Positions 3,795 to 54,844 of a stretch of 64,000 nt of DNA are shown here, one piece after another; the first letter of the stretch is position 1, and each line of letters begins with the position of its first letter. The notes below the pieces were generated by a model that saw only the letters and a program-made list of their open reading frames with translations, did no database searches and was not told the origin of the DNA. A program made the translations under genes and the position numbers. Source of the DNA: Candidatus Limnocylindria bacterium (GTDB taxonomy: Bacteria > Chloroflexota > Limnocylindria > P2-11E); assembly GCA_036003765.1 (NCBI GenBank), contig DASYSC010000012.1, forward strand, positions 4,787-68,786, read 5' to 3'.

Positions 3795-5570
3795 ATGTTC
3801 GGTCTCACGGGTGTCGGTCCGCTGCTCGTATTCGGAACGGTGATCATCGTCGCGCTCCTCGTGTTCTACGCCGCGAGCCGGTATCGGGTCGCGAACGCGA
3901 ACGAGGCTCTCATCGTCGCCGGTTCGCGCGGCGCGAAGGTGCGGGACGAGAAGGGCCAGCTGATGGTCACGGCCGGCGACAAAGGTGTGAAGGTGGTCGT
4001 CGGCGGCGGCACCTTCGTGATGCCGCTCATCCACCGTGTGGGAAGGCTGAAGCTCACCGTCCGGCAGATCGACGTCGTTCTCGGCGACGCCGTGACCAGC
4101 CAGGGAATCAAGGTGAAGGTCCAGGGCGTTGCGACGTTCAAAATCGGTCGCGACGTCGAGTCGCTACGCAACGCCGCGGAACGATTCCTCGACGCCAAGG
4201 ACGAGCACGTCGATTCGATCGTGAAGAACGTTCTCGAAGGGAGCCTGAGGTCCATCGTCGGCCGGCTGACGATCGAAGAGCTGATCATGGACCGGCAGAA
4301 GCTCCAGCAGGAGGTGCAGGACGCGGCGAAGGGCGACCTCTCGTCGAGTGGCCTGCAGATCGACGCGTTCACCATCCAGTCGATCAGCGACGAGTCCGGC
4401 TATGTGGATCTTCTCGGGCAGCAGAAGCTCGCCGTCGTCGAGAAGGACGCTCGTATGGCCAAGGCCGCCGCGGATCAGCTGGCGTCGGTCCGGGAAGCCG
4501 AGGCCGAACAGATCAAGATCCAGGCGCAGCGGGACGTTGCGCTCAAGCGCGCCGAAGCGCAGGTGCAGACGGCCGCGGCCGAGGCCCGCGCCGCGCAGGC
4601 GGGACCGCTCGCGCAGGCCGACGCCCAACAGGAGGTCACCCGCAAGCAAACGGAGCTCGCGACCCTCGCGGCACTGCGCAAGGAGCAGGAGCTCCTCTCG
4701 ACGACGGTGAAGCCCGCGGCCGCCGAGGCGCAGGCGGCGATCCAGCGAGCCGAAGGTGAGAAACGCGCGCGGATCGCCGCGGCTGAGGCGGGCGCTGAAG
4801 CCGAGCGGCTCCAGGGTTCAGCGGAAGCGGCCGTCGTGCTCACGAAGGGCGAGGCCGAGGCGAAGGCGCTCGCGATGCGAGCCGACGCCTACAAGCAGTT
4901 CAACGACGCGGCCATCATCCAGACGGTCCTCGCGGCGCTACCGGACATCGTCCGAGCGGCGGCCGAGCCGATGCAGCACATCGACTCGCTCACCGTGATG
5001 AGCGCCGACGGCGCATCGGAGATGGTGAAGAACACCTCGCGCGTCGTCGCCGAGTCCGCAACCGCCATCAAGGGCTTGACCGGCCTCGACGTCCCGAACC
5101 TGATCAGTGGCGCGATGCGATCTGGCGCGCTCGCCGGGATGAGATCCGGCGACGGCGATCGCGGCGGGAACGCGAAGCAGCCCGCCGCGTCGCCTCAGGC
5201 AGCGGCAGCGGCGCCGAGCGCTGCGGCGCCGGCGACAGCCACCAACGGCCAGTCGACGCCTGCCCCGACGAGCGTTGAGAACGCCCTCGAAGCTGCAGCG
5301 GCGACCACGACCGCGGCGACAGCAACGGCACGGACCGGGTTGCAGACGGCCGAGGATGAGGCCGCGCGGCTCCTCGCCGCGAAGCTCGGTGAAATCCCGA
5401 ACGTGGCGGACTACATGCACCTACGTCTTTCAGAGGTGGAAAACAGCGGGCCGCGCGCCATGCGCATCCTTTGGCGGATCGCCGAGGCGCAGGTAGGCAA
5501 GCGCTACGGTGCGATGACCGTCGGCGAGCTGATGAAGCGATTTGGAGTGACGCAGCCGGCTCAGCATTAG
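3795..5570 (+). CDS. floT: flotillin-like SPFH/band-7 protein with long Ala/Glu coiled-coil and an extra C-terminal domain
   Basis: N-terminal TM helix, SPFH core ([17 protein letters not shown]..., [17 protein letters not shown]), flotillin-type Ala/Glu repeats ([34 protein letters not shown]), strong SD. An Ala/Pro/Thr linker is followed by about 70 further residues. Confidence 0.85.
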
Positions 5571-5596
5571 CCCGAAAACTCAATAGACTGAATGCG

Positions 5597-6178
<582 letters not shown>

Positions 6179-6181
6179 CGC

Positions 6182-7363
6182 ATAGCCACCACCGACACGG
6201 AGCGGCGCCAGATCGCGGAATCCACTGGCTACGCGCTCCCTACGATCGAGGCCGAAGAGGGCGAGGTCGAGGAGCTCATCCTCAACATGGGGCCGCAGCA
6301 TCCGTCGACACACGGCGTGCTCCGGCTCGTTCTCAAGCTCTCCGGCGAGAAGATCGTGGAGTGCGTTCCCGTGATGGGCTACCTGCACCGCGGGCTCGAG
6401 AAGATCTTCGAGTGGCGGACGTTCCATCAGGGAATCCGATACGCGGACCAGGCGGACTACGTGTCGAACATGCTGAACGAGCACGCCTACGCGGGCGCGA
6501 TGGAGGCCATCGGCGACATCGACGTTCCGCGTCGCGCCGAGTTCATCCGCGTGATCGTCGACGAGATGAGCCGCTGCGCCTCACACCTCGTCTGGCTCGG
6601 GACCTACGGTCTCGACGTCGGTGCGACCACACCCATCCTGTGGTGCTTCCGCGATCGCGAGGAGATCCTGGACATGCTCGAGGAGCTTTGCGGCTCGCGC
6701 ATGAACTTCAACTACTACCGGCCGGGCGGCGTGCTCTACGACTTTCCCCCGGGCTGGATTGGAAAGCTCTCCCGGTTCCTCGAGCGCTACGAGAAGCACA
6801 TCGAGGAGGACTACGTCACGATCCTCGACCAGAACGAGATCTTCCTCGAGCGGACCGTCGGCGTGGGCACGATCTCCCCGGAGCTCGCGAAGGCGTACGG
6901 GCTCACCGGTCCGATGCTTCGCGGCTCAGGCGTGGACTGGGACCTGCGTCGCGACCGCCCGTACTCGATCTACCCGGAGCTCGCTTCGCTGAAGCCCGTC
7001 GTGCTCGCCGAAGGCGACGCGTACGCGCGCTACCGCGTGCGGCTCGGTGAGATGCGGCTCGCGATCGCGCTCATCCGCGAATGCCTCGACAAGCTGCCCG
7101 GCGGTCCGGTCCGCGCGCGGCTCGGCCACGTGTGGAAGTGCCCCAAGGGCGAGGCGTACTACACGGTCGAGGGCGCGAAGGGCGAGGTCGGGATCTACAT
7201 GATCAGCGACGGCCGGAGCCCGAACCCGTTCCGCGCGAAGATGCGCGGCCCCTCCTTCAGCAACCTGCAGATCCTGCCGTGGCTTCTCAAGGATCGGCTC
7301 GTCGCCGATGCCGTCGCGATCCTCGGCTCGATCGACATCGTGCTTGGAGATGTCGATCGGTGA
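6182..7363 (+). CDS. nuoD: NADH-quinone oxidoreductase subunit D-like (49-kDa/Nqo4 type, no NiFe ligands)
   Basis: LNMGPQHPSTHGVLRL, GYLHRGLEK and a C-terminal SIDIVLGDVDR are complex-I-type motifs, and both hydrogenase CxxC pairs are absent. The first canonical start is ATG 6287, but the conserved N-terminal stretch (TIEAEEGEVEELILN) lies upstream in frame with no ATG/GTG/TTG/CTG. ATA 6182 has AAGGTGGA 7 nt upstream. The 5' end is therefore uncertain (6182-6287). Confidence 0.85.
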   Translation: MATTDTERRQIAESTGYALPTIEAEEGEVEELILNMGPQHPSTHGVLRLVLKLSGEKIVECVPVMGYLHRGLEKIFEWRTFHQGIRYADQADYVSNMLNEHAYAGAMEAIGDIDVPRRAEFIRVIVDEMSRCASHLVWLGTYGLDVGATTPILWCFRDREEILDMLEELCGSRMNFNYYRPGGVLYDFPPGWIGKLSRFLERYEKHIEEDYVTILDQNEIFLERTVGVGTISPELAKAYGLTGPMLRGSGVDWDLRRDRPYSIYPELASLKPVVLAEGDAYARYRVRLGEMRLAIALIRECLDKLPGGPVRARLGHVWKCPKGEAYYTVEGAKGEVGIYMISDGRSPNPFRAKMRGPSFSNLQILPWLLKDRLVADAVAILGSIDIVLGDVDR

Positions 7364-7374
7364 CTGTTCCACGA

Positions 7375-7472
7375 CGCCGGCCACTCGACCGAAACCCTCT
7401 CTACGCGACGGGGACCCCCCGGCCTCCGGCCGGCTCCCCATCTCGCGGGGGCCCTCGGTCGAGTGGCCGGCG
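7375..7472 (+). repeat. intercistronic palindromic/structured element, copy 1 (nuoD to next gene)
   Basis: An 18-bp perfect outer stem (CGCCGGCCACTCGACCGA / TCGGTCGAGTGGCCGGCG) encloses a 62-nt core, aaccctctctacgcgacggggaccccccggcctccggccggctccccatctcgcgggggccc. The core is nearly identical to 52318-52380. Confidence 0.65.
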
Positions 7473-7493
7473 GCGCTGCAGTGAGGTCTCCCA

Positions 7494-8213
7494 ATGAGAG
7501 GAATCATTTCCGGCATGCTGCGGACACTCGAGCACTTCGTGCGACCGCGTCCGGTCACTCGGAAGTATCCGTATGAGAAGCGCGATCTTCCGGAGCGGTC
7601 CCGTGGGCTCATTGCTCTTCTGCTCGAGCCGGAGACGAGCATCTTCAAGTGCGAGTCGTGTCTCATGTGTGAGAAGGCGTGCCCGCCGCGAGCGATCTCT
7701 ATCTCCTACACATTTAAGAACGGCTTCCGCAAGCGCCCACCGCTCGCGCCGCGCGCGTCTTACTACCGGATCCGCATGGTGCAGACCGCGCCGTACGGTG
7801 ATCGCCGACCGCAGTCCACCGCCGTGACGACCATCCCGGCGGAGGATGAAGATCGCTTGGATCTGGGCCCGGTCCGTCGTGTGCTGCGGGAGACCCCGAA
7901 GGGCGCCGACCGGTTGACGCGCGTTCTCTACGCGACGAATGCCGCATACGGCTACCTGCCCTGGCGCGCCGCGGAGCTCATCGCGGCCGAGTTCGGGAAG
8001 ACCATGACCGACCTGTACACGGCGGCGTCTCTCCTCGCGAACTTTCGCGGGGCCCCCGACGGCAAAGGGACGGCGATCCCGCGCGGAGGCCGCAGGTACA
8101 CCGGCAACCTCGGCGTCGCGGGCGTCTGGCCCGAGGCGTCACCGCCTCCCGCGCACGACGACCTGCACGAGGACGAGATCCATCACGTCCTCGAGCCGAC
8201 CTTTGCCCGCTAG
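7494..8213 (+). CDS. chimeric NuoI-like (single 4Fe-4S motif) / NuoE-N-terminal-like protein
   Basis: N-terminus VTRKYPYEKRDLPERSRG...CESCLMCEKACPPRAISI matches the NuoI start and its first CxxCxxCxxxCP. No second Cys motif is present. C-terminus LTRVLYATNAAYGYLPWRAAELIAAEFGKTMTDLYTAASLLANFR resembles the helical N-domain of NuoE/HoxE without the 2Fe-2S thioredoxin-like domain. Confidence 0.6.
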   Translation: MRGIISGMLRTLEHFVRPRPVTRKYPYEKRDLPERSRGLIALLLEPETSIFKCESCLMCEKACPPRAISISYTFKNGFRKRPPLAPRASYYRIRMVQTAPYGDRRPQSTAVTTIPAEDEDRLDLGPVRRVLRETPKGADRLTRVLYATNAAYGYLPWRAAELIAAEFGKTMTDLYTAASLLANFRGAPDGKGTAIPRGGRRYTGNLGVAGVWPEASPPPAHDDLHEDEIHHVLEPTFAR

Positions 8214-9408
8214 CACCGCGCCGCGGCTCCTCGATGGGGAAGCACGCGGTGCGCTCGAGCGCGCGCGGTCGACGGCTATCGACGAGCTCATCCAGATCGT
8301 CGAACGGAGCGGGCTCCGCGGCCGCGGGGGCGCGGGCTACCCCTTCGCCGAGAAGCTTCGCGCCGTCCGGCGGAACGTCGACGGCGGCGAGGTGTACCTC
8401 GTGGCGAACGGTTACGACGCCGACCCGGCAAGCCCGCTCGCCCGAACCCTTCTCACGCGCAACGCCGCCAACGTGCTGCGCGGTATCGCGATCGCGGTGC
8501 ATGCGGTCGGCGCGACGCAGGCGTACCTCTACCTGCACCCCGAGGCGATCGATGCCCGTGCCGCAGCGGAGCGGGCGATCCTGGAGCTCGGCGGGGACCT
8601 CGGAGTCCCGATCGAGATCGCGCTCGGCCCAGGCGGCTTCATGGGTGGCGAGGAGTCGGCCCTGCTCGCGGTGCTCGAGTCCCGCCGCGCGATGGCGCGC
8701 CAGCGCCCGCCGTATCCGGCCGCGCAAGGGCTCCGGCTTCGGCCGACGCTCGTGTCGAGCGTAGAAACGCTGGCCTGGCTACCGCTCGTCATTGAGGAGC
8801 AGGCCCGAGCGAACACCAAGCTCGTCTCGGTGACTGGAGCGGTGAACCGGCCCGGCGTGTACGAGATCGTGCTCGGCACGCAGCTCGGCGAGATCCTGAG
8901 CGAGGCCGGCGGGGCGACCGGAAAGATCAAAGGCATCCACGTGGGTGGGCCGACGGGTGGCATCCTCGCATCGTCGAGGCTCGACACGCGGTTCGCCTTC
9001 GACGACCTTCGGGTCGCAGGCACGCACATGGGATCGGCGCAGGTCCGCGCGATCGCCGCGGGCACATGCATCGTCAACGAGGCGGCGACGCTCTTCGCGT
9101 ATCTGGCGCGGGAGAACTGCGCGATCTGCGTTCCGTGCCGCGTGGGCACAAAGCGCGTGCAGGGCATCCTCGAGAGTACGTACTCGGGCCTCGGTCGCGA
9201 GAGCGACCTCGCGTGGCTCGACGAGCTCGGCACGCACATGGAGCGGTTCTCGCTCTGTGGGTTCGGGATCACCGCACCCTCGATCCTCCGCACGACGATG
9301 CGTGAGTTCCCCGAAGACTACCGAGTGCACATTCAGGAGCGTCGGTGTCCCGAGGGCACGTGCAAGCCCGTGCGATCCCGCAGGTACGAGACGATGGTGC
9401 AGCCATGA
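8203..9408 (+). CDS. divergent NuoF-like flavoprotein (FMN site plus N3-type 4Fe-4S)
   Basis: GLRGRGGAGYPF (NuoF has GLRGRGGAGFP), GGFMGGEESALL...RPPYPAAQGL (NuoF has GAYICGEETAL...KPPFPA), CAICVPCRVGT...SLCGFG (CxxCxxC...C). The NADESEPG block is replaced by NGYDADPAS. Overlaps the previous gene by 11 nt. Confidence 0.75.
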   Translation: MPASTAPRLLDGEARGALERARSTAIDELIQIVERSGLRGRGGAGYPFAEKLRAVRRNVDGGEVYLVANGYDADPASPLARTLLTRNAANVLRGIAIAVHAVGATQAYLYLHPEAIDARAAAERAILELGGDLGVPIEIALGPGGFMGGEESALLAVLESRRAMARQRPPYPAAQGLRLRPTLVSSVETLAWLPLVIEEQARANTKLVSVTGAVNRPGVYEIVLGTQLGEILSEAGGATGKIKGIHVGGPTGGILASSRLDTRFAFDDLRVAGTHMGSAQVRAIAAGTCIVNEAATLFAYLARENCAICVPCRVGTKRVQGILESTYSGLGRESDLAWLDELGTHMERFSLCGFGITAPSILRTTMREFPEDYRVHIQERRCPEGTCKPVRSRRYETMVQP

Positions 9409-9613
9409 CGCGAGCGATGCGCAGCGCAGCGGGTGGCACGGGGGAGCGGGGGTTGCGCGCGATGCGCGGGTGCCCCGGGGACCCGTCCGGGACGACGCGT
9501 GCGGTATGTCGAGAGAACGGAGGACGGGGAGGGTGCGCGAGCGCGCGACCCCCCGACCCCGTGACAGGACCCGCTGCGCGGCGCGCCGATGGCGTCGATA
9601 GAGTGGCTGCGAC

Positions 9614-12022
9614 ATGAGTTTGCTCGAGAGATACACGCAGCCTGCGGAGTCGCAGATCCCCACGGTCTCGCACAGCGGCGAGATCCCAAGCGGTCAGCCG
9701 ACGTGCACGATCTGGATCGACGGGAAGGAAGTCACGGCGATCCCCGGCGAAGCGATCTTGCGAGCCGCGCAGCGCGCTGGGTTCGAGGTGCCGACGCTCT
9801 GCGACGACGAGAAGCTCGCTCCGGCCGCCGCGTGTCGCATGTGCCTGGTGGAGATCGAGGGCTACCACCGCCCGATGCCGTCCTGCCATTTGCCGGTAGA
9901 GCCCGACATGAGGATCACCCAGGCCTCGGAGTCGCTGTTCAAGCTGCGCCGCCAGAACCTCGAGTACATCCTCAGCGACCACAACGCCTACTGCATGCCG
10001 CCGTGCCAGATCAGCTGTCCGACGCACATCGACATACCCGGCTACCTGGAGCTCATGTCGAAGGGCCAACACGTGGAAGCGGCGCGCCTGGTCAAGGAGG
10101 TCCTGCCGTTCCCATACATGCTGGGACTCGTGTGCCCAAAACCGTGCCAGGAGGTCTGCCGCCGCGGGCTGGTCGAGGAAGAGATCGCCATCTGCCAGTG
10201 CCACGGCTTCACCGGCGAGCTCGTCATGGAAATGGACAAAGCGCCCACGCCATTTCCGCAGCTCGCGGCGACAGGAAAGCGCGTGGCTGTCGTCGGCGCG
10301 GGGCCGGCCGGAATGACCGCGGCGTACTACACAGCGCTCAAGGGTCATGCCGTCACGGTGTTCGACATGATGCAAAAGCAGGGCGGCATCGCGCGGTATG
10401 GCATCCCCGAATACCGCCTCCCGAAGGTGAAGCTCGACAAAGAGCTGAACTCTGTGTGGCAGCTGCGGGACACGGACTTCAGGGGCGGGATGATGCTCGG
10501 CCGCGATTTCAGCCTCGACGATCTCTTCACCCAGGGTTACGACGCGGTCTTCCTCGGGATCGGCGCGTGGCGCTCGAACGAGCTCCGGATCCCTGGCGAG
10601 GATCTCCCTGGGGTGATCGAGGCGATCAACTACCTCCGCATGAACGCGGAAGGCGACCCTGTACCGGTTGGGAAGGGCCAGAAGGTCGTCGTCATCGGCG
10701 GCGGGTTCACCACGTTCGACTGCTCGCGGACCTCGCGCCGCCTGGGTGCGGACGTCACGGTCGTGTATCGGCGGTCGCGCAAGGAGATGGGCGCACATTA
10801 CAGCGAGGTCGACGATGCTGAGCACGAGGGCATCAAGCTGGAGTTCTTCGCCTCGCCGGTGAAGATCGTCGAGAAGAATGGTCGCGTCGGCGGGATCGAA
10901 TTCCAGCGCATGGCGCTCGGCGAGCCCGACGCATCGGGACGGCGTCGCCCGGTCCCGATCGAGGGCTCGAACTTCGTGATTGAGTGCGACACCGTCATTC
11001 CCGCGATCGGCCAGGTGCCCAATCTCGACTTCTTCGAGCGCGAGTCGGGCGTGAAGAAGACGAGGCGCGAAACGATCGTCACCAACGGCGCGCTTATGAG
11101 CGACCGGCCCGGGGTGTTCGCCGGCGGCGACTGCCAGATGGGCGCGGTCACCGTGATCCAGTGCGTCGCGCAGGGCAAGCTCGCGGCGAAGGCCATCGAT
11201 CGCTACCTGGCGGGCGACGACATGGCGCGCGTCGCCGCGGAGATAGCGGAAGAGGAAGCGGTCCCCGAGCTCATCGACATCGTTCCGTACAAGCCCGAGG
11301 AGCCGCAGGTGCGTATGCCGATGCTCCCGTTCAAGGAGCGCGAGCTCAGCTTCCAGCTCATCGAGAACGGCTACGACAAGGCCGCCGCTGAGAAGGAGGC
11401 CGCGCGGTGCCTGCAGTGCGTATGCCCCGATGTCGGGCGCTGCCACCTGCAGCGGCTTTCACTCGAGCACGGTCTCACTGACAACCGCTTCCACCGCGCG
11501 GAGCCAGTCGACTACCACGACTACGAGTACGACTTCAGTCACGACTTCATCCTTCGCGACCTGAACAAGTGCATCAACTGCACGCAGTGCGTCCGGATCT
11601 GCCGCGACGTGATCGGTGCGAACTGCTACGGCCTCATGGGCGGCGGGTACGACTCGATCGTCACGACGCCGTGGAACGTGTCTCTCAAGTACACCGACTG
11701 CGTGTCCTGCGGCGCGTGCGCCGAGACATGTCCGACCGGGGCGCTGATGATGCGCGAGCGGGACCTGCAGACCTACGAGCTCGACATCGTCCGCTGCATC
11801 TACTGCGGCGACTGCGTGGAGGTCTGTCCACATGGCGCGCTCGGCGAAACGCCGAACTTCGAGCTTTCGACGTACGGCCGCTTCGGGAGGACGGTGCTCG
11901 CGAAAGAAGAGCTCGCCGCCGCGCGTACGTGGAAGCCGTCGGAGGAGATTCCGCTCGATGGTCACAACGCGCCGCGCCCGCCGGAGATCCGGCCGCCCGG
12001 ACCGCCGCGCTGGGGCGCCTGA
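9614..12022 (+). CDS. multidomain Fe-S flavoprotein: 2Fe-2S ferredoxin + GltD-like NAD(P)H/FAD oxidoreductase + NuoG/HoxU-like 4Fe-4S + 2x4Fe-4S ferredoxin
   Basis: N-terminus CTIWIDGKEV...PTLCDD...AAACRMCLVEIEG (NuoG/HoxU 2Fe-2S). CMPPCQISCPTHIDIPGY...LVCPKPCQEVCRRG and KRVAVVGAGPAGMTAAYY...GIPEYRLPK (GltD/SudA type). CLQCVCPDVGRCHLQ and KCINCTQCVRICRDV (NuoG N5/N4-like). CVSCGACAETCPTGAL and CIYCGDCVEVCPHGAL (ferredoxin pair). Confidence 0.8.
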   Translation: MSLLERYTQPAESQIPTVSHSGEIPSGQPTCTIWIDGKEVTAIPGEAILRAAQRAGFEVPTLCDDEKLAPAAACRMCLVEIEGYHRPMPSCHLPVEPDMRITQASESLFKLRRQNLEYILSDHNAYCMPPCQISCPTHIDIPGYLELMSKGQHVEAARLVKEVLPFPYMLGLVCPKPCQEVCRRGLVEEEIAICQCHGFTGELVMEMDKAPTPFPQLAATGKRVAVVGAGPAGMTAAYYTALKGHAVTVFDMMQKQGGIARYGIPEYRLPKVKLDKELNSVWQLRDTDFRGGMMLGRDFSLDDLFTQGYDAVFLGIGAWRSNELRIPGEDLPGVIEAINYLRMNAEGDPVPVGKGQKVVVIGGGFTTFDCSRTSRRLGADVTVVYRRSRKEMGAHYSEVDDAEHEGIKLEFFASPVKIVEKNGRVGGIEFQRMALGEPDASGRRRPVPIEGSNFVIECDTVIPAIGQVPNLDFFERESGVKKTRRETIVTNGALMSDRPGVFAGGDCQMGAVTVIQCVAQGKLAAKAIDRYLAGDDMARVAAEIAEEEAVPELIDIVPYKPEEPQVRMPMLPFKERELSFQLIENGYDKAAAEKEAARCLQCVCPDVGRCHLQRLSLEHGLTDNRFHRAEPVDYHDYEYDFSHDFILRDLNKCINCTQCVRICRDVIGANCYGLMGGGYDSIVTTPWNVSLKYTDCVSCGACAETCPTGALMMRERDLQTYELDIVRCIYCGDCVEVCPHGALGETPNFELSTYGRFGRTVLAKEELAAARTWKPSEEIPLDGHNAPRPPEIRPPGPPRWGA

Positions 12023-15512: not shown

Positions 15513-15586
15513 GGGCTCTTAGCTCAGCTGGTTAGAGCGCAGCGTTGACATCGCTGAGGTCGCGTGTTCGAGCCACGCAGAGCCCA
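15513..15586 (+). tRNA. tRNA-Val (anticodon GAC)
   Basis: Manual cloverleaf: acceptor GGGCTCT/AGAGCCC, D-arm GCTC-AGCTGGTTA-GAGC, anticodon arm CAGCG-TTGACAT-CGCTG, variable loop AGGTC, T-arm GCGTG-TTCGAGC-CACGC, discriminator A. CC follows in the genome. Confidence 0.9.
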
Positions 15587-45328: not shown

Positions 45329-46045
45329 GTGCAGGGCGTTCTCGCGCTAGAGCGTGTCACCATCCGCGAGGCGGACTTCAGTCGTGCCGCGTTCGAGCGC
45401 TTCGCGCCGAACGGTTGCACGTTCGAGCGGTGCGACTTCCGCGGCGAATCGTTCGATGAGCGTTTGCAGACGCTGTTCGCGAGCCGGCGGCAGAGCGTGT
45501 TCCGTGAATGCCGCTTCGACGGCGCCGATCTGCGCGGCGTCCGTCCTGGGCAAGCGCGCTTCGAACGCTGCAGCTTCGCCGGCGCGAACATCGACGGCTG
45601 GATCTCGGCGTGCGCCGAGTTCGTGGAGTGCCGCTTCACGGGTACGTTCCGCAACATCTCGTTCCATGGCAAGCCCTGGGGCCACGCCGCCGAGCGCATC
45701 GACCCGATCCGGGCGACGAATGCGTTCACGGGCAACGACTTCACCGAGGCATCGCTCTTGAGCGTGCTGTTCGTGAATGGCATCGACGTTCAGGGACAGC
45801 ACTGGCCCGACGGCGACAGCTACGTGGTGATCGACCGCATCCATCAGCGGCTCACCCGGGCACGGGCGCGAGTCCTCGAATGGAAGGATTACGAGTCGCG
45901 GAACGAGGCTCTCGCCATGCTGCAACAGATCGCGTTCGTGTTCATCCACCAGAGCGGAATCGCGACGCCACGCGCGGACGACCGCTGGCCGGCCACCTTG
46001 GAGACGCAGCGCAAGGTCTGGCAGACGCTCGAAGCCGCGATGTAG
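45329..46045 (+). CDS. pentapeptide-repeat-like protein
   Basis: Recurrent five-residue periodicity around F/L/C (ADFSRAAFERFAPNGCTFERCDFRGESF...CRFDGADLRGVRPGQARFERCSFAGANIDG...AEFVECRFTGTFRNISF). GTG start 27 nt after the bactofilin stop. Confidence 0.65.
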   Translation: MQGVLALERVTIREADFSRAAFERFAPNGCTFERCDFRGESFDERLQTLFASRRQSVFRECRFDGADLRGVRPGQARFERCSFAGANIDGWISACAEFVECRFTGTFRNISFHGKPWGHAAERIDPIRATNAFTGNDFTEASLLSVLFVNGIDVQGQHWPDGDSYVVIDRIHQRLTRARARVLEWKDYESRNEALAMLQQIAFVFIHQSGIATPRADDRWPATLETQRKVWQTLEAAM

Positions 46046-46304
46046 TCCTCCGGGCTGGCGCCCGTGCGGTCTGCTGCGCCTCCGGCCGAAGAGCACGCTC
46101 TTCGGCCACCTCAGTAGTCCTCGGACCTGACGGTCCTGTGGTCTGCTGAGCCTCGGGCCGAAGAGCACGCTCTTCGGCCACCTCAGTAGTCCTCGGACCT
46201 GACGGTCCTGTGGTCTGCTGAGCCTCGGGCCGAAGAGCACGCTCTTCGGCCACCTCAGTAGTCCTCCGGGCTGGCGCCCGTGCGGTCTGCTGCAGCAGTA
46301 GTCC
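46042..46304 (+). repeat. 72-bp tandem repeat, 3 full units plus a partial one, each with a perfect hairpin
   Basis: Unit anchors gtagtcc at 46042, 46114, 46186, 46258 (and 46298). Hairpin GGCCGAAGAG-cacg-CTCTTCGGCC at 46084-46107, 46156-46179 and 46228-46251. Begins on the stop codon of the pentapeptide gene. Confidence 0.85.
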
Positions 46305-51231: not shown

Positions 51232-52287
51232 ATGGCCGGCGAGGAACTGAAGGAGCTGGCGGACCGCGCGATCGCTGAGATCGCCGCGGCCGCGGACGAG
51301 CCCGCGCTCGAAGCGGCGCGCGTGAAGTTTCTCGGCCGCAAAGAGGGCGCCCTCAGCGAGGCCACGAAACGTATCGCGAAGCTTCCGGCCAGCGAGAAAC
51401 CCGCCTACGGCGCCGCGGTGAACGAGGCGAAACAGCGGATCGAGCGTGCGCTCGAGGATCGGAGCGGCGCGCTACGCGAGGCGGCGCTGGCGCGCGACCT
51501 GGGGGGCGAGCGCGAGGACATGACGCTCCCGCCGCGGCGCGTGCGCGTCGGCCGCCTCCACCCGATCTCGCAGACGATGCGCGAGGTGTCACGCATCTTC
51601 GCCACGCTCGGCTTCGAGACCGTCGAGGGACCCGAGATCGAGTGGGATTACTACAACTTCGAGGCGCTCAACATCCCGCCCGGGCATCCGGCGCGCGAAA
51701 AGTGGCAGACGCTGTGGATATCGAATCCGCTTGGGGACGACGCATCGCGTCCGATCCTCGGCCGGACGCACACCTCGCCGATGCAGATCCGCGTGATGGA
51801 GCAACGCCGGCCACCAATCCGCGTGGTCATCCCGGGACGCTGCTACCGGTACGAGGCGACCGACGCGATCCGCGAGAGCATCTTCTTCCAGTACGAGGGG
51901 CTGGCCATCGACGAAAGGCTCACGATGGCCGATCTGAAAGGCGTGCTCTATTCGTTCGCGCGGCAGGTGTTCGGAGGTGACCGGAAGATCCGCTTCCGGA
52001 CCGATTACTTCCCGTTCACCGAACCGTCCGCGGAGATCGCCTTCAGCTGCTTCACCTGCGAAGGACGCGACCCCGAGTGCCGCGTGTGCGGAGGCGACGG
52101 TTGGATCGAGGCCGCCGGTTGCGGGATGGTCCACCCCGACGTGCTGCGCCGCGTCGGCTACGACCCCACGCGCTACCAGGGCTTCGCCTTCGGCGGAGGG
52201 ATCGAACGCCTCGCGATGCTCCGCACCGGCGCACCGGACATCCGGCTCTTCTATCAGAACGATTTGCGCTACTTGGAGCAGTTCTGA
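51232..52287 (+). CDS. pheS: phenylalanine--tRNA ligase alpha subunit
   Basis: HPISQTMREV..IF..LGF, GRTHTSPMQIR, PGRCYRYE, FRTDYFPFTEPSAE, GCGMVHP.VL, FAFGGGIERLAML. Confidence 0.95.
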   Translation: MAGEELKELADRAIAEIAAAADEPALEAARVKFLGRKEGALSEATKRIAKLPASEKPAYGAAVNEAKQRIERALEDRSGALREAALARDLGGEREDMTLPPRRVRVGRLHPISQTMREVSRIFATLGFETVEGPEIEWDYYNFEALNIPPGHPAREKWQTLWISNPLGDDASRPILGRTHTSPMQIRVMEQRRPPIRVVIPGRCYRYEATDAIRESIFFQYEGLAIDERLTMADLKGVLYSFARQVFGGDRKIRFRTDYFPFTEPSAEIAFSCFTCEGRDPECRVCGGDGWIEAAGCGMVHPDVLRRVGYDPTRYQGFAFGGGIERLAMLRTGAPDIRLFYQNDLRYLEQF

Positions 52288-52305
52288 TGCTTCTGCAGGC
52301 CGTGC

Positions 52306-52392
52306 GGGCAGGTCCGAAACCCTCTCTACGCGGCGGCGGACCCCCCGGCCTACGGCCGGTGCCCCACCGCGCGGGGGCCCTCGGACCTGCCC
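52306..52392 (+). repeat. intercistronic palindromic/structured element, copy 2 (pheS-pheT spacer)
   Basis: A 12-bp perfect outer stem GGGCAGGTCCGA / TCGGACCTGCCC encloses the 63-nt core aaccctctctacgcggcggcggaccccccggcctacggccggtgccccaccgcgcgggggccc (compare 7393-7454). A further 8-bp hairpin GCGCCTCG...CGAGGCGC follows at 52399-52421, just before GTG 52424. Confidence 0.65.
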
Positions 52393-52423
52393 TCACGGCG
52401 CCTCGCTCGCAACGAGGCGCGAG

Positions 52424-54844
52424 GTGCTGATCAAAGTCCCGCTGTCGTGGCTGCGCGAGTACGTCGATATCACCGTGCCCATCGACGAGCTCGCTCTCAG
52501 GCTGCACATGTCGAGCACCGAGGTGAAGGGCGTCGAGCGGCCGTGGTGGGACGACAACGTGCGCGTGGGACGCATCGAGAAGCTCGCGAAGCACCCGAAT
52601 GCGGACAAGCTCCAGCTCGCGACCATCGACTACGGCGAGGCTCGCCCCAAGACCGTCGTCACCGGCGCGACCAATCTCGCCGTCGGCGACATCGTTCCCT
52701 TCGCCGACGAGGGAGCGCAGATCATCGACGGCCATACCGGCGAGCGGACCACACTGCGCGGGAGGCCCATGCGCGGCATCCAAAGCGAGGGCATGGCCCT
52801 CTCCGCGAAGGAGCTCGGTCTCGGCGACGACCACGACGGCATCCAGATCCTCGATCGAACGCTTGCCGTAGGAGCCCGGCTCCGTGATGTCTTGGGCGAG
52901 ACGGTCCTCGCGCTCGATCTGCAGCCGAACCGGCCGGATTGCCTCGGCATCGTCGGGATCGCCCGCGAGGTCGCGGCGCTCCTGGCGACCGAGCTTCGCG
53001 AGCCTCCGCTGGATCGCCTTCCGGACAAAGCGACCGGCGAGCTCGACGTGCGCATCGAGGACGATGACGCGTGCCCGCGGTTCGCAGCGGCTCTCCTGAC
53101 CGGCGTGCGTATCGGTCCGTCGCCGCAGTGGATGCAGAACCGCTTGACCGCGGCCGGGATGCGACCGATCGACAACGTCGTCGACATCACGAACTACGTG
53201 ATGCTCGAGCTCGGCCAGCCGCTGCACGCCTATGACCATCGCAAGTTGCGCGGCGGCGCCCTGGTCGCGCGCAGGGCGAGGCGCGGGGAGACGCTCCGCA
53301 CGCTCGACGGTGTCGACCGCGTGCTGTATGAGGACACGCTGGTCATCGCCGACGCGGAGCGCGCGCTCGGGGTCGCCGGGATCCTGGGCGGCGAGGACTC
53401 CGAGATCCGCGAGGACACCACGACGGTCGCTCTCGAATGCGCTTCCTTCGAGTCGCGCGGCATCGGCCGGACCGCAGCAAAGCTAGGGCTGCACGGCTCG
53501 TCGGGCAGCGCCGCGGCACGGCGTTTCGCGTGGGAGCTCTCGCCCGATCTCGTCCCGGTCGCGCTCGCCCGCGCCGTCCGCCTCCTTCGCGAGCACGCTG
53601 GCGCGGAGGTGGCCGGTGTCGTGGACCGCTATCCGAAGCGGCGCGGCACGGTGAACGTGCGAATGCGCTTCTCAGACATCCCGCGGGTACTCGGCATCGA
53701 GATCGGCCCGGAGGAAACGCTCGATGTCCTCCGCCGGCTGCAATTCGTCGCCGCGGCGGACGGCGACACGCTCATCGCGACACCGCCCGCGGTGCGGACG
53801 GACATCGGGATCGCCGAGGACATCGTCGAGGAGGTCGGGCGCATCGCAGGCTACGACCGCCTCCCGGTGCGCATCCCCGATGGGGCCCTCCCGCTCCACG
53901 AGCGCCATCCGCTCCAGGAGTTCCGCGAGAAAGCCCGCGACGGGCTGGCGGGATTCGGGCTGCAGGAGGTGGTGTCGTACTCGCTCATCGATCCCTCCTG
54001 GCTGCGCATGCTGACCCCCGATGGCTCGTGCATCGCACCCGAGCCGCTGCGGGTCATCAATCCCACGACCATCACGCAATCCGCGGCCCGGCCGACACTT
54101 CGGGCCAGCCTGCTGGACACGGCCAGGCGAAATCTGCGGAACCGCGCCGGCGTCGCGATCTTCGAGATCGCTCCTATCTATGTGCCGCAGCGCGGCGATC
54201 TTCCGGACGAGCGTTGGACGATTGGGATCCTTATCGCGGGAAACGCCGAGCCGGTGCGCGACGGCGAGACGTGGCTCACTCCAGAGCGACGCTGGGACGT
54301 GCGCGATCTGCAGGGGTACGTGCTGGCTCTCGCCGATCTGCTCGACGTGCATACGTCAGGCGACAGCGTCGACGCGCCCGGCCTCCACCCTGGGCGCTCC
54401 ATCGCGTTGGCCCGCGACGGCTTCACGTACCTCGTCGCCGGCCAGCTCGATCCGCGGGTCGCCGCGAAGTGGGAGCTTCCCGCGGCGACGTTCGTCGCAG
54501 AGATCGACGTCGCGTCGTGGCTCGGGGCCGCGCAATCGGCGCGGGTCTCCGCTCCGCCGCGCTTTCCGGCCGCGCTGCGCGACCTCGCGATCGTCGTCGA
54601 TGAGGCGACGCCGTACCGCGACGTCGAACGCGAGATCCGCGCGTCGGCGGCCAGGGATCTCGAGTCCGTCGCGCTCGTCGATCTCTACCGCGGACCGCAG
54701 ATCGGGGCGGGGAAGAAGTCGTTCGCGGTGAGGCTCGTCCTTCGCTCGGCGACGGCCACGCTCGCCGAGGAGGATGTGGACCGTCTGGTCAAACGGGTCG
54801 CCGGCCGGCTACAGCACGCCCTGGGAGCGACGATCCGGAGCTAA
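52424..54844 (+). CDS. pheT: phenylalanine--tRNA ligase beta subunit
   Basis: GTG 52424 gives (M)LIKVPLSWLREYV. tRNA-binding domain HPNADKLQLATIDYG, B3/4 and B5 blocks, C-terminal anticodon-binding-like FAVRLVLRS. The track ORF from 51977 is an upstream shadow extension. Confidence 0.9.
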   Translation: MLIKVPLSWLREYVDITVPIDELALRLHMSSTEVKGVERPWWDDNVRVGRIEKLAKHPNADKLQLATIDYGEARPKTVVTGATNLAVGDIVPFADEGAQIIDGHTGERTTLRGRPMRGIQSEGMALSAKELGLGDDHDGIQILDRTLAVGARLRDVLGETVLALDLQPNRPDCLGIVGIAREVAALLATELREPPLDRLPDKATGELDVRIEDDDACPRFAAALLTGVRIGPSPQWMQNRLTAAGMRPIDNVVDITNYVMLELGQPLHAYDHRKLRGGALVARRARRGETLRTLDGVDRVLYEDTLVIADAERALGVAGILGGEDSEIREDTTTVALECASFESRGIGRTAAKLGLHGSSGSAAARRFAWELSPDLVPVALARAVRLLREHAGAEVAGVVDRYPKRRGTVNVRMRFSDIPRVLGIEIGPEETLDVLRRLQFVAAADGDTLIATPPAVRTDIGIAEDIVEEVGRIAGYDRLPVRIPDGALPLHERHPLQEFREKARDGLAGFGLQEVVSYSLIDPSWLRMLTPDGSCIAPEPLRVINPTTITQSAARPTLRASLLDTARRNLRNRAGVAIFEIAPIYVPQRGDLPDERWTIGILIAGNAEPVRDGETWLTPERRWDVRDLQGYVLALADLLDVHTSGDSVDAPGLHPGRSIALARDGFTYLVAGQLDPRVAAKWELPAATFVAEIDVASWLGAAQSARVSAPPRFPAALRDLAIVVDEATPYRDVEREIRASAARDLESVALVDLYRGPQIGAGKKSFAVRLVLRSATATLAEEDVDRLVKRVAGRLQHALGATIRS

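Follow-up and report, generated by a model that had tools for sequence, protein, structure and literature searches.

Two long hairpins were examined in the window, by which we mean the whole 64-kb stretch of Limnocylindria DNA that was analyzed. The first (copy 1) lies between a NuoD-like gene and a conserved ORF of 239 aa without a Pfam match, and the second (copy 2) lies between pheS and pheT. The features at the two places are as follows:

6287-7363, forward strand: NuoD-like gene (Complex1_49kDa), upstream of copy 1
7375-7392, forward strand: 5′ arm of the outer stem (P1) of copy 1, CGCCGGCCACTCGACCGA, of which only the final CCGA occurs family-wide and the remainder is site-specific
7393-7454, forward strand: core of copy 1, 62 nt, type A, covariance-model score 92.5 bits
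7393-7418, forward strand: 5′ half of the copy 1 core, with AACCCTCTCTA at 7393-7403, CGCGA at 7404-7408, GGGGA at 7410-7414, and CCCC at 7415-7418
7419-7433, forward strand: inner hairpin of copy 1, CCGGCC-TCC-GGCCGG
7435-7454, forward strand: 3′ half of the copy 1 core, with TCCCC at 7435-7439, TCGCG at 7443-7447, and GGGGCCC at 7448-7454
7455-7472, forward strand: 3′ arm of the copy 1 outer stem, TCGGTCGAGTGGCCGGCG, the perfect complement of 7375-7392 (18 bp)
7494-8213, forward strand: conserved 239-aa ORF without a Pfam match, downstream of copy 1
51232-52287, forward strand: pheS, upstream of copy 2
52285-52291, forward strand: pheS stop codon TGA with ATGCT left over from the ancestral, overlapping start of pheT, marking the left edge of an inserted ~135-nt spacer
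52299-52317, forward strand: 5′ arm of the copy 2 outer stem, GCCGTGCGGGCAGGTCCGA, 19 nt with one mismatch, perfectly paired at 52306-52317
52318-52380, forward strand: core of copy 2, 63 nt, type A, covariance-model score 85.7 bits
52381-52399, forward strand: 3′ arm of the copy 2 outer stem, TCGGACCTGCCCTCACGGC
52424-54844, forward strand: pheT, with a GTG start, downstream of copy 2

The initial annotation described a core of ~62 nt shared by two places in the window and enclosed at each by a long self-complementary stem, and this arrangement is present at 7375-7472 and 52299-52399. A few substitutions and a single 1-nt indel separate the two cores, and both carry the reported inner hairpin CCGGCC-T(C/A)C-GGCCGG. 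The outer stems, given originally as 18 and 12 bp, comprise 18 perfect base pairs in copy 1 and 19 bp with one mismatch in copy 2, where the inner 12 bp (52306-52317 with 52381-52392) are perfect. Two exact occurrences of the 17-mer GAAACCCTCTCTACGCG are present in the window, compared to 0.23 expected by chance. Copy 1 begins 11 nt after the stop codon of the nuoD-like gene (7361-7363) and ends 21 nt before the ATG at 7494, while copy 2 begins 11-18 nt after the pheS stop codon (52285-52287), leaving 24-31 nt to the pheT GTG at 52424. Upon re-measurement, the distances thus shift slightly (11-18 nt after the stop and 21-31 nt before the start) and the placement remains essentially as first described.

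The “nuo” cluster at 5471-12022 is not a canonical nuoA-N operon. Its genes encode, in order, a NuoB-like protein, a NuoD-like protein, the 239-aa ORF (also present in L167-L169, where L-numbers denote loci in related assemblies), a NuoF-like protein, and an 802-aa protein with Fer2_4, Fer4_20, and Pyr_redox_2 domains, and the cluster rather resembles a soluble NuoBDF-type or hydrogenase-like module. Other repeats are also present in the window. The spacer between the NuoF-like gene and the gene for the 802-aa protein (9400-9610) contains a GC-rich long inverted repeat of ~190 nt with arms at 9407-9434 and 9569-9596. Relatives of this repeat occupy the orthologous spacer in L052, L122, L101, and L106 and are found elsewhere at L021:3792-3940, L061:5190-5340, and L026:7278-7309, while the outgroup L167 has a spacer of only ~90 nt at this junction. 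It looks like a second family of dispersed palindromic repeats. At 46042-46292, three tandem 72-nt units directly follow a stop codon, and each contains the perfect palindrome GGCCGAAGAGCACGCTCTTCGGCC.

Both copies fold into structures with energies far lower than those of shuffled sequences (z = -7.3 for copy 1 and z = -3.4 for copy 2). The opposite strands form structures that are no less stable, with -83.1 versus -75.0 kcal/mol for copy 1 and -67.6 versus -63.1 kcal/mol for copy 2. Terminator and promoter scans returned no such signal at either copy, and the sequences 3′ of the copies (GCGCTGCAGTGAGG and GCCTCGCTCGCAAC) lack the T/U run that follows the hairpin of an intrinsic terminator. 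At gathering threshold, the sole Rfam match in the whole window is a tRNA. This tRNA gene is located at 15513-15586 and has a counterpart of 93% identity in L169. With the cutoff relaxed to E ≤ 10, the only matches to the region 7340-7510 are miRNA models of the generic-hairpin kind, which score 12-18 bits where the gathering scores are 57-98.

We looked for further copies with pattern scans and a covariance model (R1). An exact scan with GAAACCCTCTCTACGCGNCGG, using one genome per species, yielded 33 matches in 16 assemblies, all of them soil Chloroflexota or Ca. Limnocylindria MAGs. A slightly relaxed pattern added at least 120 further matches in soil-metagenome contigs, bringing the family to at least 150 copies, all from Chloroflexota/Limnocylindria assemblies or soil metagenomes. 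No match was found among the plasmids, phages, and viral contigs scanned, and an origin from such replicons was rejected. We ran model R1, which was built from 27 copies, against the window and all early loci, a kind of search that the initial annotation had proposed. Further members do exist, as recovered by the pattern scans; the model itself detects only the two known copies in the 64-kb window and no additional diverged ones at any of the places covered. In 84 kb of sequence from four relatives without the pheS copy it detects no member, and the family is absent altogether from sister lineages in the regions examined. One typical copy occurs in L019 (DASPWX010000093.1), a contig binned as Candidatus Bathyarchaeia; its flanks are orthologous to a Limnocylindria location (site 2), and it is probably mis-binned. 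The elements have a GC content of ~78%.

We analyzed ~144 copies for anatomy and insertion site. Clustering by flank homology placed 144 copies in 38 clusters, five pairs of which represent a single locus with the element inverted, leaving ~33 orthologous sites. We estimate the total number of sites to be a few tens above this figure, and the two copies in 64 kb would correspond to tens of copies per genome. The family is undescribed so far: no catalogued REP or MITE family matching the core was found, an outcome that the initial annotation had left open, and our literature search returned nothing on repeats in Limnocylindria.

Each unit is 80-130 nt long and consists of a conserved, asymmetric core within an outer stem. 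Across the ~144 copies, the invariant 5′ side reads CCGA-AACCCTCT...CGCG, with an nnn spacing before the CGCG, and the 3′ side reads CGCG-GGGG(G/T)CCC-TCGG. The triplet that follows CTCT is variable (CTA, TTA, GTT, CAA, CTT, CAT, or TTT). The inner hairpin is exchangeable and occurs as types A, A2 (longer), B, and C; by inspection, the sequences do not fit a derivation of type B by simple inversion of the type A hairpin. L096, which has no inner hairpin at all, represents a minimal copy, while L014, L051, and L012 hold copies that are nested or partial.

A smaller hairpin module of 27-31 nt, GTCGCTnCGCGCCCAGGGGCCCCTnCCCCTG, is found in either orientation in the 3′ half of ~27 copies. It is present in L038 (8830-8860) and missing from L036 (11130-11140), L037, and L039; given that PheS and the flanks are identical in all of these, the difference must reflect a recent indel. 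In L002 the module is inverted, and in L169 (11090-11125) it is found by itself downstream of nuoD. It behaves as a separate small mobile or indel-prone element, and each time ~30 nt apparently replaces ~3 nt.

Every copy has an outer stem of its own, 5-24 bp in length (median 16) and nearly always perfect, and 118 distinct stem sequences are represented. Only the CCGA/TCGG portion is fixed, with conservation decaying over ~7 bp. In the 27-sequence alignment, both partners have changed in nine of the 12 stem pairs, and 97.2% of stem cells pair compared to 80.4% in shuffles. The compensatory A...T to G...C change noted between the two window copies is likewise real, and the pair covaries throughout the family (GC 16, AU 9, CG 1). 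The mismatches, however, do not have the composition expected of an RNA helix. The variable part of P1 in the 118 distinct stems contains 1291 Watson-Crick pairs, 18 G·T, 21 A·C, and 26 other mismatches. Since a selected RNA helix should tolerate G·U well above A·C, the near equality of the G·T and A·C counts indicates that the complementarity is of DNA type. Two invariant U·G pairs are present on the sense strand only.

Stems and cores follow different patterns of inheritance. The eight stem bases beside CCGA are 0.70 identical within a site versus 0.42 between sites, whereas core identity is essentially the same for same-site pairs (0.763) and different-site pairs (0.756). One exact 63-nt core occurs at nine old sites in nine different stems, a single orthologous site may carry different core types with or without the module, and a few P1 sequences are common to more than one site. 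At the nuoD site (site 5 in the flank clustering), the orthologous arms differ from each other by compensated changes. The identity values and the core found in nine stems together indicate that the stem is inherited with its locus, accumulating compensated changes, while the core is exchanged or homogenized among loci. We also considered the whole hairpin, including P1, as the mobile unit and rejected this as a general rule, as P1 tracks the site and an identical core appears in nine P1s. Metagenome assemblers may collapse core variants and so exaggerate some of the core homogeneity, yet the result recurs in many independent assemblies, and the differences between types A and B and the core inversions cannot arise from assembly collapse.

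Inversion of the core was verified base by base at the pheS-pheT site (L084), in FtsK (L092 versus L102), and between L003 and L063. At pheS-pheT, L084 carries a reverse-complemented core between arms (GCGAGCGGGCAGCTCCGA) that are homologous to those of the window copy. The majority of sites are old, being shared by species with ~85% nucleotide identity in the flanking genes. Conservation of the core far exceeds that of the neighboring spacer, a pattern that host-level purifying selection would also fit.

Comparison of orthologous junctions identified both filled and empty sites. The pheS-pheT junction is filled in the window, L012, L034/35, L036-39, L059, L084, and L138. It is empty in L040-L043 (PheS 72-80% identical), where the pheS stop codon abuts or overlaps the pheT ATG (TGATGCT.. 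or TAGATGCT..) with neither a spacer nor a hairpin. Filled alleles have TGATG directly after pheS; the letters that come next (C, CT, or A) differ with the lineage, and pheT restarts at [A/G/T]TGCTGAT[C/A]A; in the window, pheT now begins at GTGCTGATCA (52424). Read from these alleles, the junction tentatively suggests an insertion of ~135-175 nt with a putative target-site duplication of 3-5 bp, ATG(C[T]), on either side. The nuoD site has a 25-nt spacer without a hairpin in the outgroup L167, and L169, whose NuoD is 94% identical to that of the window and whose genes share ~85% nucleotide identity with it, lacks the main element at this site and retains only the small module. Compared with other loci, the L101 copy at the nuoD site (1057-1160) lacks the 5′ stem arm along with ~190 nt from the 3′ end of nuoD, reflecting either a deletion beside the element or an assembly artefact at the repeat.

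The third comparison concerns the error-prone polymerase gene dnaE2. The empty allele is found in L164 (..VVEGAAAEAAHPL..) and the filled allele in L134 and L079 (..SAESAA[PKPSLRDGGPP...ALG]AASSASHPL..); filled and empty versions show no clear direct repeat. L165 has a decayed derivative of the element at this position, and L166 has a copy that is read in another frame. The DnaE2 loop that follows ..LPVDVN..AVVE (proteins P0121-P0240) is hypervariable across Limnocylindria, with several inserts that include decayed copies and other GC-rich sequences; it is apparently a hot spot of palindromic insertion. In one relative, a gene for a reverse transcriptase (RVT_1, 429 aa; L165:3235-4524) lies ~1 kb downstream of dnaE2/marR. 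No de novo insertion of the main element was seen between near-identical genomes.

These comparisons bear on the proposal that a small mobile palindromic element lies behind the two hairpins, and they favor it: the family is dispersed, lineage-restricted, and modular, and has both filled and empty orthologous sites. The accompanying suggestion that the element inserts into pre-existing hairpins does not hold for the first insertion, as the empty pheS-pheT, nuoD, and DnaE2 sites contain no hairpin. It does apply secondarily, in that the 27-31-nt module enters the element's own hairpin, identical cores sit in different stems, and nested or partial copies occur.

Genes around the copies were called with a purpose-made codon log-likelihood caller. 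The majority of sites are located between co-directional genes, where the copies begin 6-25 nt after a stop codon and end shortly before the next start. Five sites fall between divergent genes and three between convergent genes. Counted per copy, 67 elements are sense and 22 antisense to the genes (~3:1); counted by site, ~13 are mostly sense and ~6 mostly antisense, and the bias is not significant. The genes that flank the copies share no common functional theme. At four sites the element lies in-frame within a gene, and the Pfam domains on either side of it are intact:

HHH_6 region of the error-prone DNA polymerase III alpha subunit (DnaE2)
linker of FtsK, with the element in both orientations
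lipoyl-E3-binding (E3BD) linker of the 2-oxoacid dehydrogenase E2 acyltransferase
linker of a UbiE-like methyltransferase-membrane protein fusion, with the element in both orientations

The “in-ORF” calls at site 1 probably arise from over-extension of the start codon and were left out of the intragenic count.

Taken together, these observations make it probable that both hairpins are members of a lineage-restricted family of dispersed, GC-rich palindromic (foldback) DNA repeats in a Ca. Limnocylindria subclade, selfish and non-coding and of the REP/MITE/RPE kind, rather than operon-specific signals. On this explanation, a rare insertion that brought the whole spacer would have seeded each site, possibly with a short target duplication at pheS/pheT. 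The arms would then be held complementary at the DNA level, by intrastrand templated correction or by recombination within the palindrome, and the same between-arm process would invert the core. Gene conversion or re-insertion between copies, using the conserved boundaries, could homogenize cores across sites. The hairpin in the mRNA would be very stable in either direction, and any effect on the nuo-like and pheST transcripts would be a by-product. Several observations count against a selfish repeat, namely that no transposase, parent element, or insertion sequence for the family was seen in the analyzed loci, that copies are skewed toward the sense orientation (67 versus 22, or ~13 versus 6 sites), that the sites are old and conserved, and that a target-site duplication is weakly indicated. 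A more elaborate version, which we regard as speculative and rather unlikely, posits a two-layer mobile system in which P1 serves as a site-specific palindromic “socket” and the conserved core as a “cassette.” A dedicated enzyme that recognizes hairpins or single-stranded DNA would read the asymmetric loops AACCCTCT / GGGGGCCC beside CCGA/TCGG, would move, invert, and swap the cassette, and would build or extend complementary arms from flanking DNA at insertion, unlike the passive gene conversion of a dead repeat.

The initial annotation offered, as one of two alternatives, a structured RNA with a role in processing, stability, or attenuation. Read as a strand-specific RNA with a covarying P1, such as a self-cleaving ribozyme, a protein-binding motif, or an attenuator, the element would have the classic appearance of a ribozyme or riboswitch, with conserved unpaired core nucleotides inside a fully covarying stem, a covarying R:Y pair, and the U·G pairs confined to the sense strand. 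It nevertheless has no Rfam match beyond generic hairpins even at E ≤ 10 and no terminator or promoter signal, and P1 contains no excess of G·T over A·C. Different lineages carry the core in opposite orientations at one and the same site, equally conserved either way, ~25% of the copies are antisense to genes, and others lie in-frame within ORFs. The inversions, the antisense and intragenic copies, the missing wobble signature, the lack of a gene theme, and the loss in close relatives are hard to reconcile with a strand-specific RNA, and we judge this part of the original claim to be very improbable. An RNA hairpin that acts independently of orientation, shielding upstream mRNA from 3′ exonucleases or uncoupling cistrons for the benefit of the host, would accommodate the equal folding of the strands, the mild sense bias, the position of the intergenic copies shortly downstream of stop codons, mostly between co-directional genes, and the conservation of sites across long divergence. 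A generic stem-loop, however, has no need of an invariant asymmetric core, and the family also has copies between divergent genes and inside coding regions; the stems of the element show no wobble-pair signature, and the close relatives L169, L040-43, and L167 manage without the element at the same junctions. Such a function seems unlikely to us as an explanation of the family, but it is compatible with a selfish origin and the two may coexist.

The strict DNA-type complementarity of the stems, the free orientation, and a core conserved regardless of transcription would suit a host site that acts at the level of DNA, in which a cruciform or hairpin bound by, for example, a nucleoid, topoisomerase, or replication protein is kept for a chromosomal function irrespective of its orientation. 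Confinement of the family to a subclade and its absence from sister lineages in the regions examined speak against this, as does loss without replacement in L169, and insertion into essential coding sequences looks parasitic. We therefore consider a maintained chromosomal site to be a distinctly improbable explanation.

The dispersed selfish repeat that we favor has parallels among several known systems. The Rickettsia palindromic elements (RPEs) are lineage-specific palindromic repeats that are frequently found in-frame in unrelated genes (PMC10969869). Both families consist of hairpin repeats of ~100-150 bp that are restricted to one lineage, occur in intergenic positions and in-frame in often essential genes, and add a tolerated peptide; in both, many sites are old and orthologous and no transposase has been identified. 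The Limnocylindria family thus appears closest to the RPEs in behavior, the match being one of behavior only and not of sequence. Sequence similarity is not expected, given that RPEs come from the AT-rich genomes of Rickettsia and the element described here has a GC content of ~78%. The host also differs, being a free-living, high-GC soil Chloroflexota of an unrelated phylum, and only the center of the Limnocylindria element is conserved while its outer arms are site-specific. To our knowledge, core flipping, core exchange, and a nested sub-module form no part of the RPE description.

REPs are 20-40 nt long and have a conserved GTAG or CGTC tetranucleotide at one end (PMC3733652). Like REP and BIME elements, the family described here consists of short GC-rich palindromes that often follow stop codons in operons, are present in mRNA, are found in either orientation, and make up families within a genome; it differs from them in its 80-130-nt unit, its tens rather than hundreds of copies, and its intragenic members. 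The conserved GTAG/CGTC tag is lacking, and the sole complement of GTAG (the CTAC in CTCTACGCG) falls in the variable triplet, so assignment to REP/BIME was rejected. In E. coli, REP/BIME sequences have been proposed to protect upstream mRNA from 3′ exonucleases or to uncouple cistrons. A cognate RAYT (Y1 HUH) gene, typically flanked by REPs, is expected in REP-bearing genomes. A tblastn search for RAYT or IS200-type TnpA returned nothing at E < 0.1 in ~1.2 Mb of loci, a weak test that used IS608 TnpA and E. coli RAYT sequences as queries. REPINs consist of two inverted conserved REPs as arms around a variable spacer or loop. This architecture is reversed in the present family, where the arms are variable and the center is conserved, and we rejected this class as well.

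What defines a MITE is a pair of conserved terminal inverted repeats together with a target-site duplication, both derived from a parent insertion sequence. BOX elements resemble the present family in being modular. Bacterial MITEs are non-autonomous, hairpin-forming, and dispersed, and they can be co-transcribed and fuse in-frame with ORFs (PMC10969869). The Limnocylindria repeats resemble Correia, ERIC, RUP, and BOX elements in being non-autonomous, hairpin-forming, and dispersed, and in being open to co-transcription and in-frame fusion. They were rejected as canonical MITEs, since their terminal inverted repeats are conserved over only 4-7 bp (…CCGA/TCGG…), the outer arms are 0.42 identical between sites, the target-site duplication is no more than putative, and no parent insertion sequence was seen in the analyzed loci. 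The GC clusters and double-hairpin elements of fungal mitochondria are also small and GC-rich, spread within a genome, nest, and occur both in spacers and in-frame in genes; they differ in belonging to AT-rich organellar genomes and in having unrelated sequences, and we know of no description of a conserved core in a variable stem among them. Compared with the descriptions of RPE, REP/REPIN, and MITE elements, this family stands out in that a conserved asymmetric center sits in a perfect stem peculiar to each site, that cores flip and are exchanged, and that a nested module is present.

These findings remove a false lead, in that the hairpins do not constitute a common RNA regulator of the nuo-like and pheST operons, and they carry a warning that “perfect covariation” of a stem can come from the upkeep of a palindrome at the DNA level and not from selection on RNA structure. 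Counting G·T against A·C mismatches and comparing orientation at orthologous sites are simple means of telling the two apart. For genome reconstruction, the repeat is a likely source of contig breaks, and possibly of mis-binning, in Limnocylindria MAGs. The family also provides a clean natural experiment on how bacterial chromosomes keep palindromes perfect, invert them, and convert them. More broadly, it represents an RPE-like phenomenon outside the obligate intracellular bacteria, in abundant, uncultured, free-living soil Chloroflexota, where palindromic selfish DNA is tolerated in-frame in the essential proteins DnaE2, FtsK, and E2.
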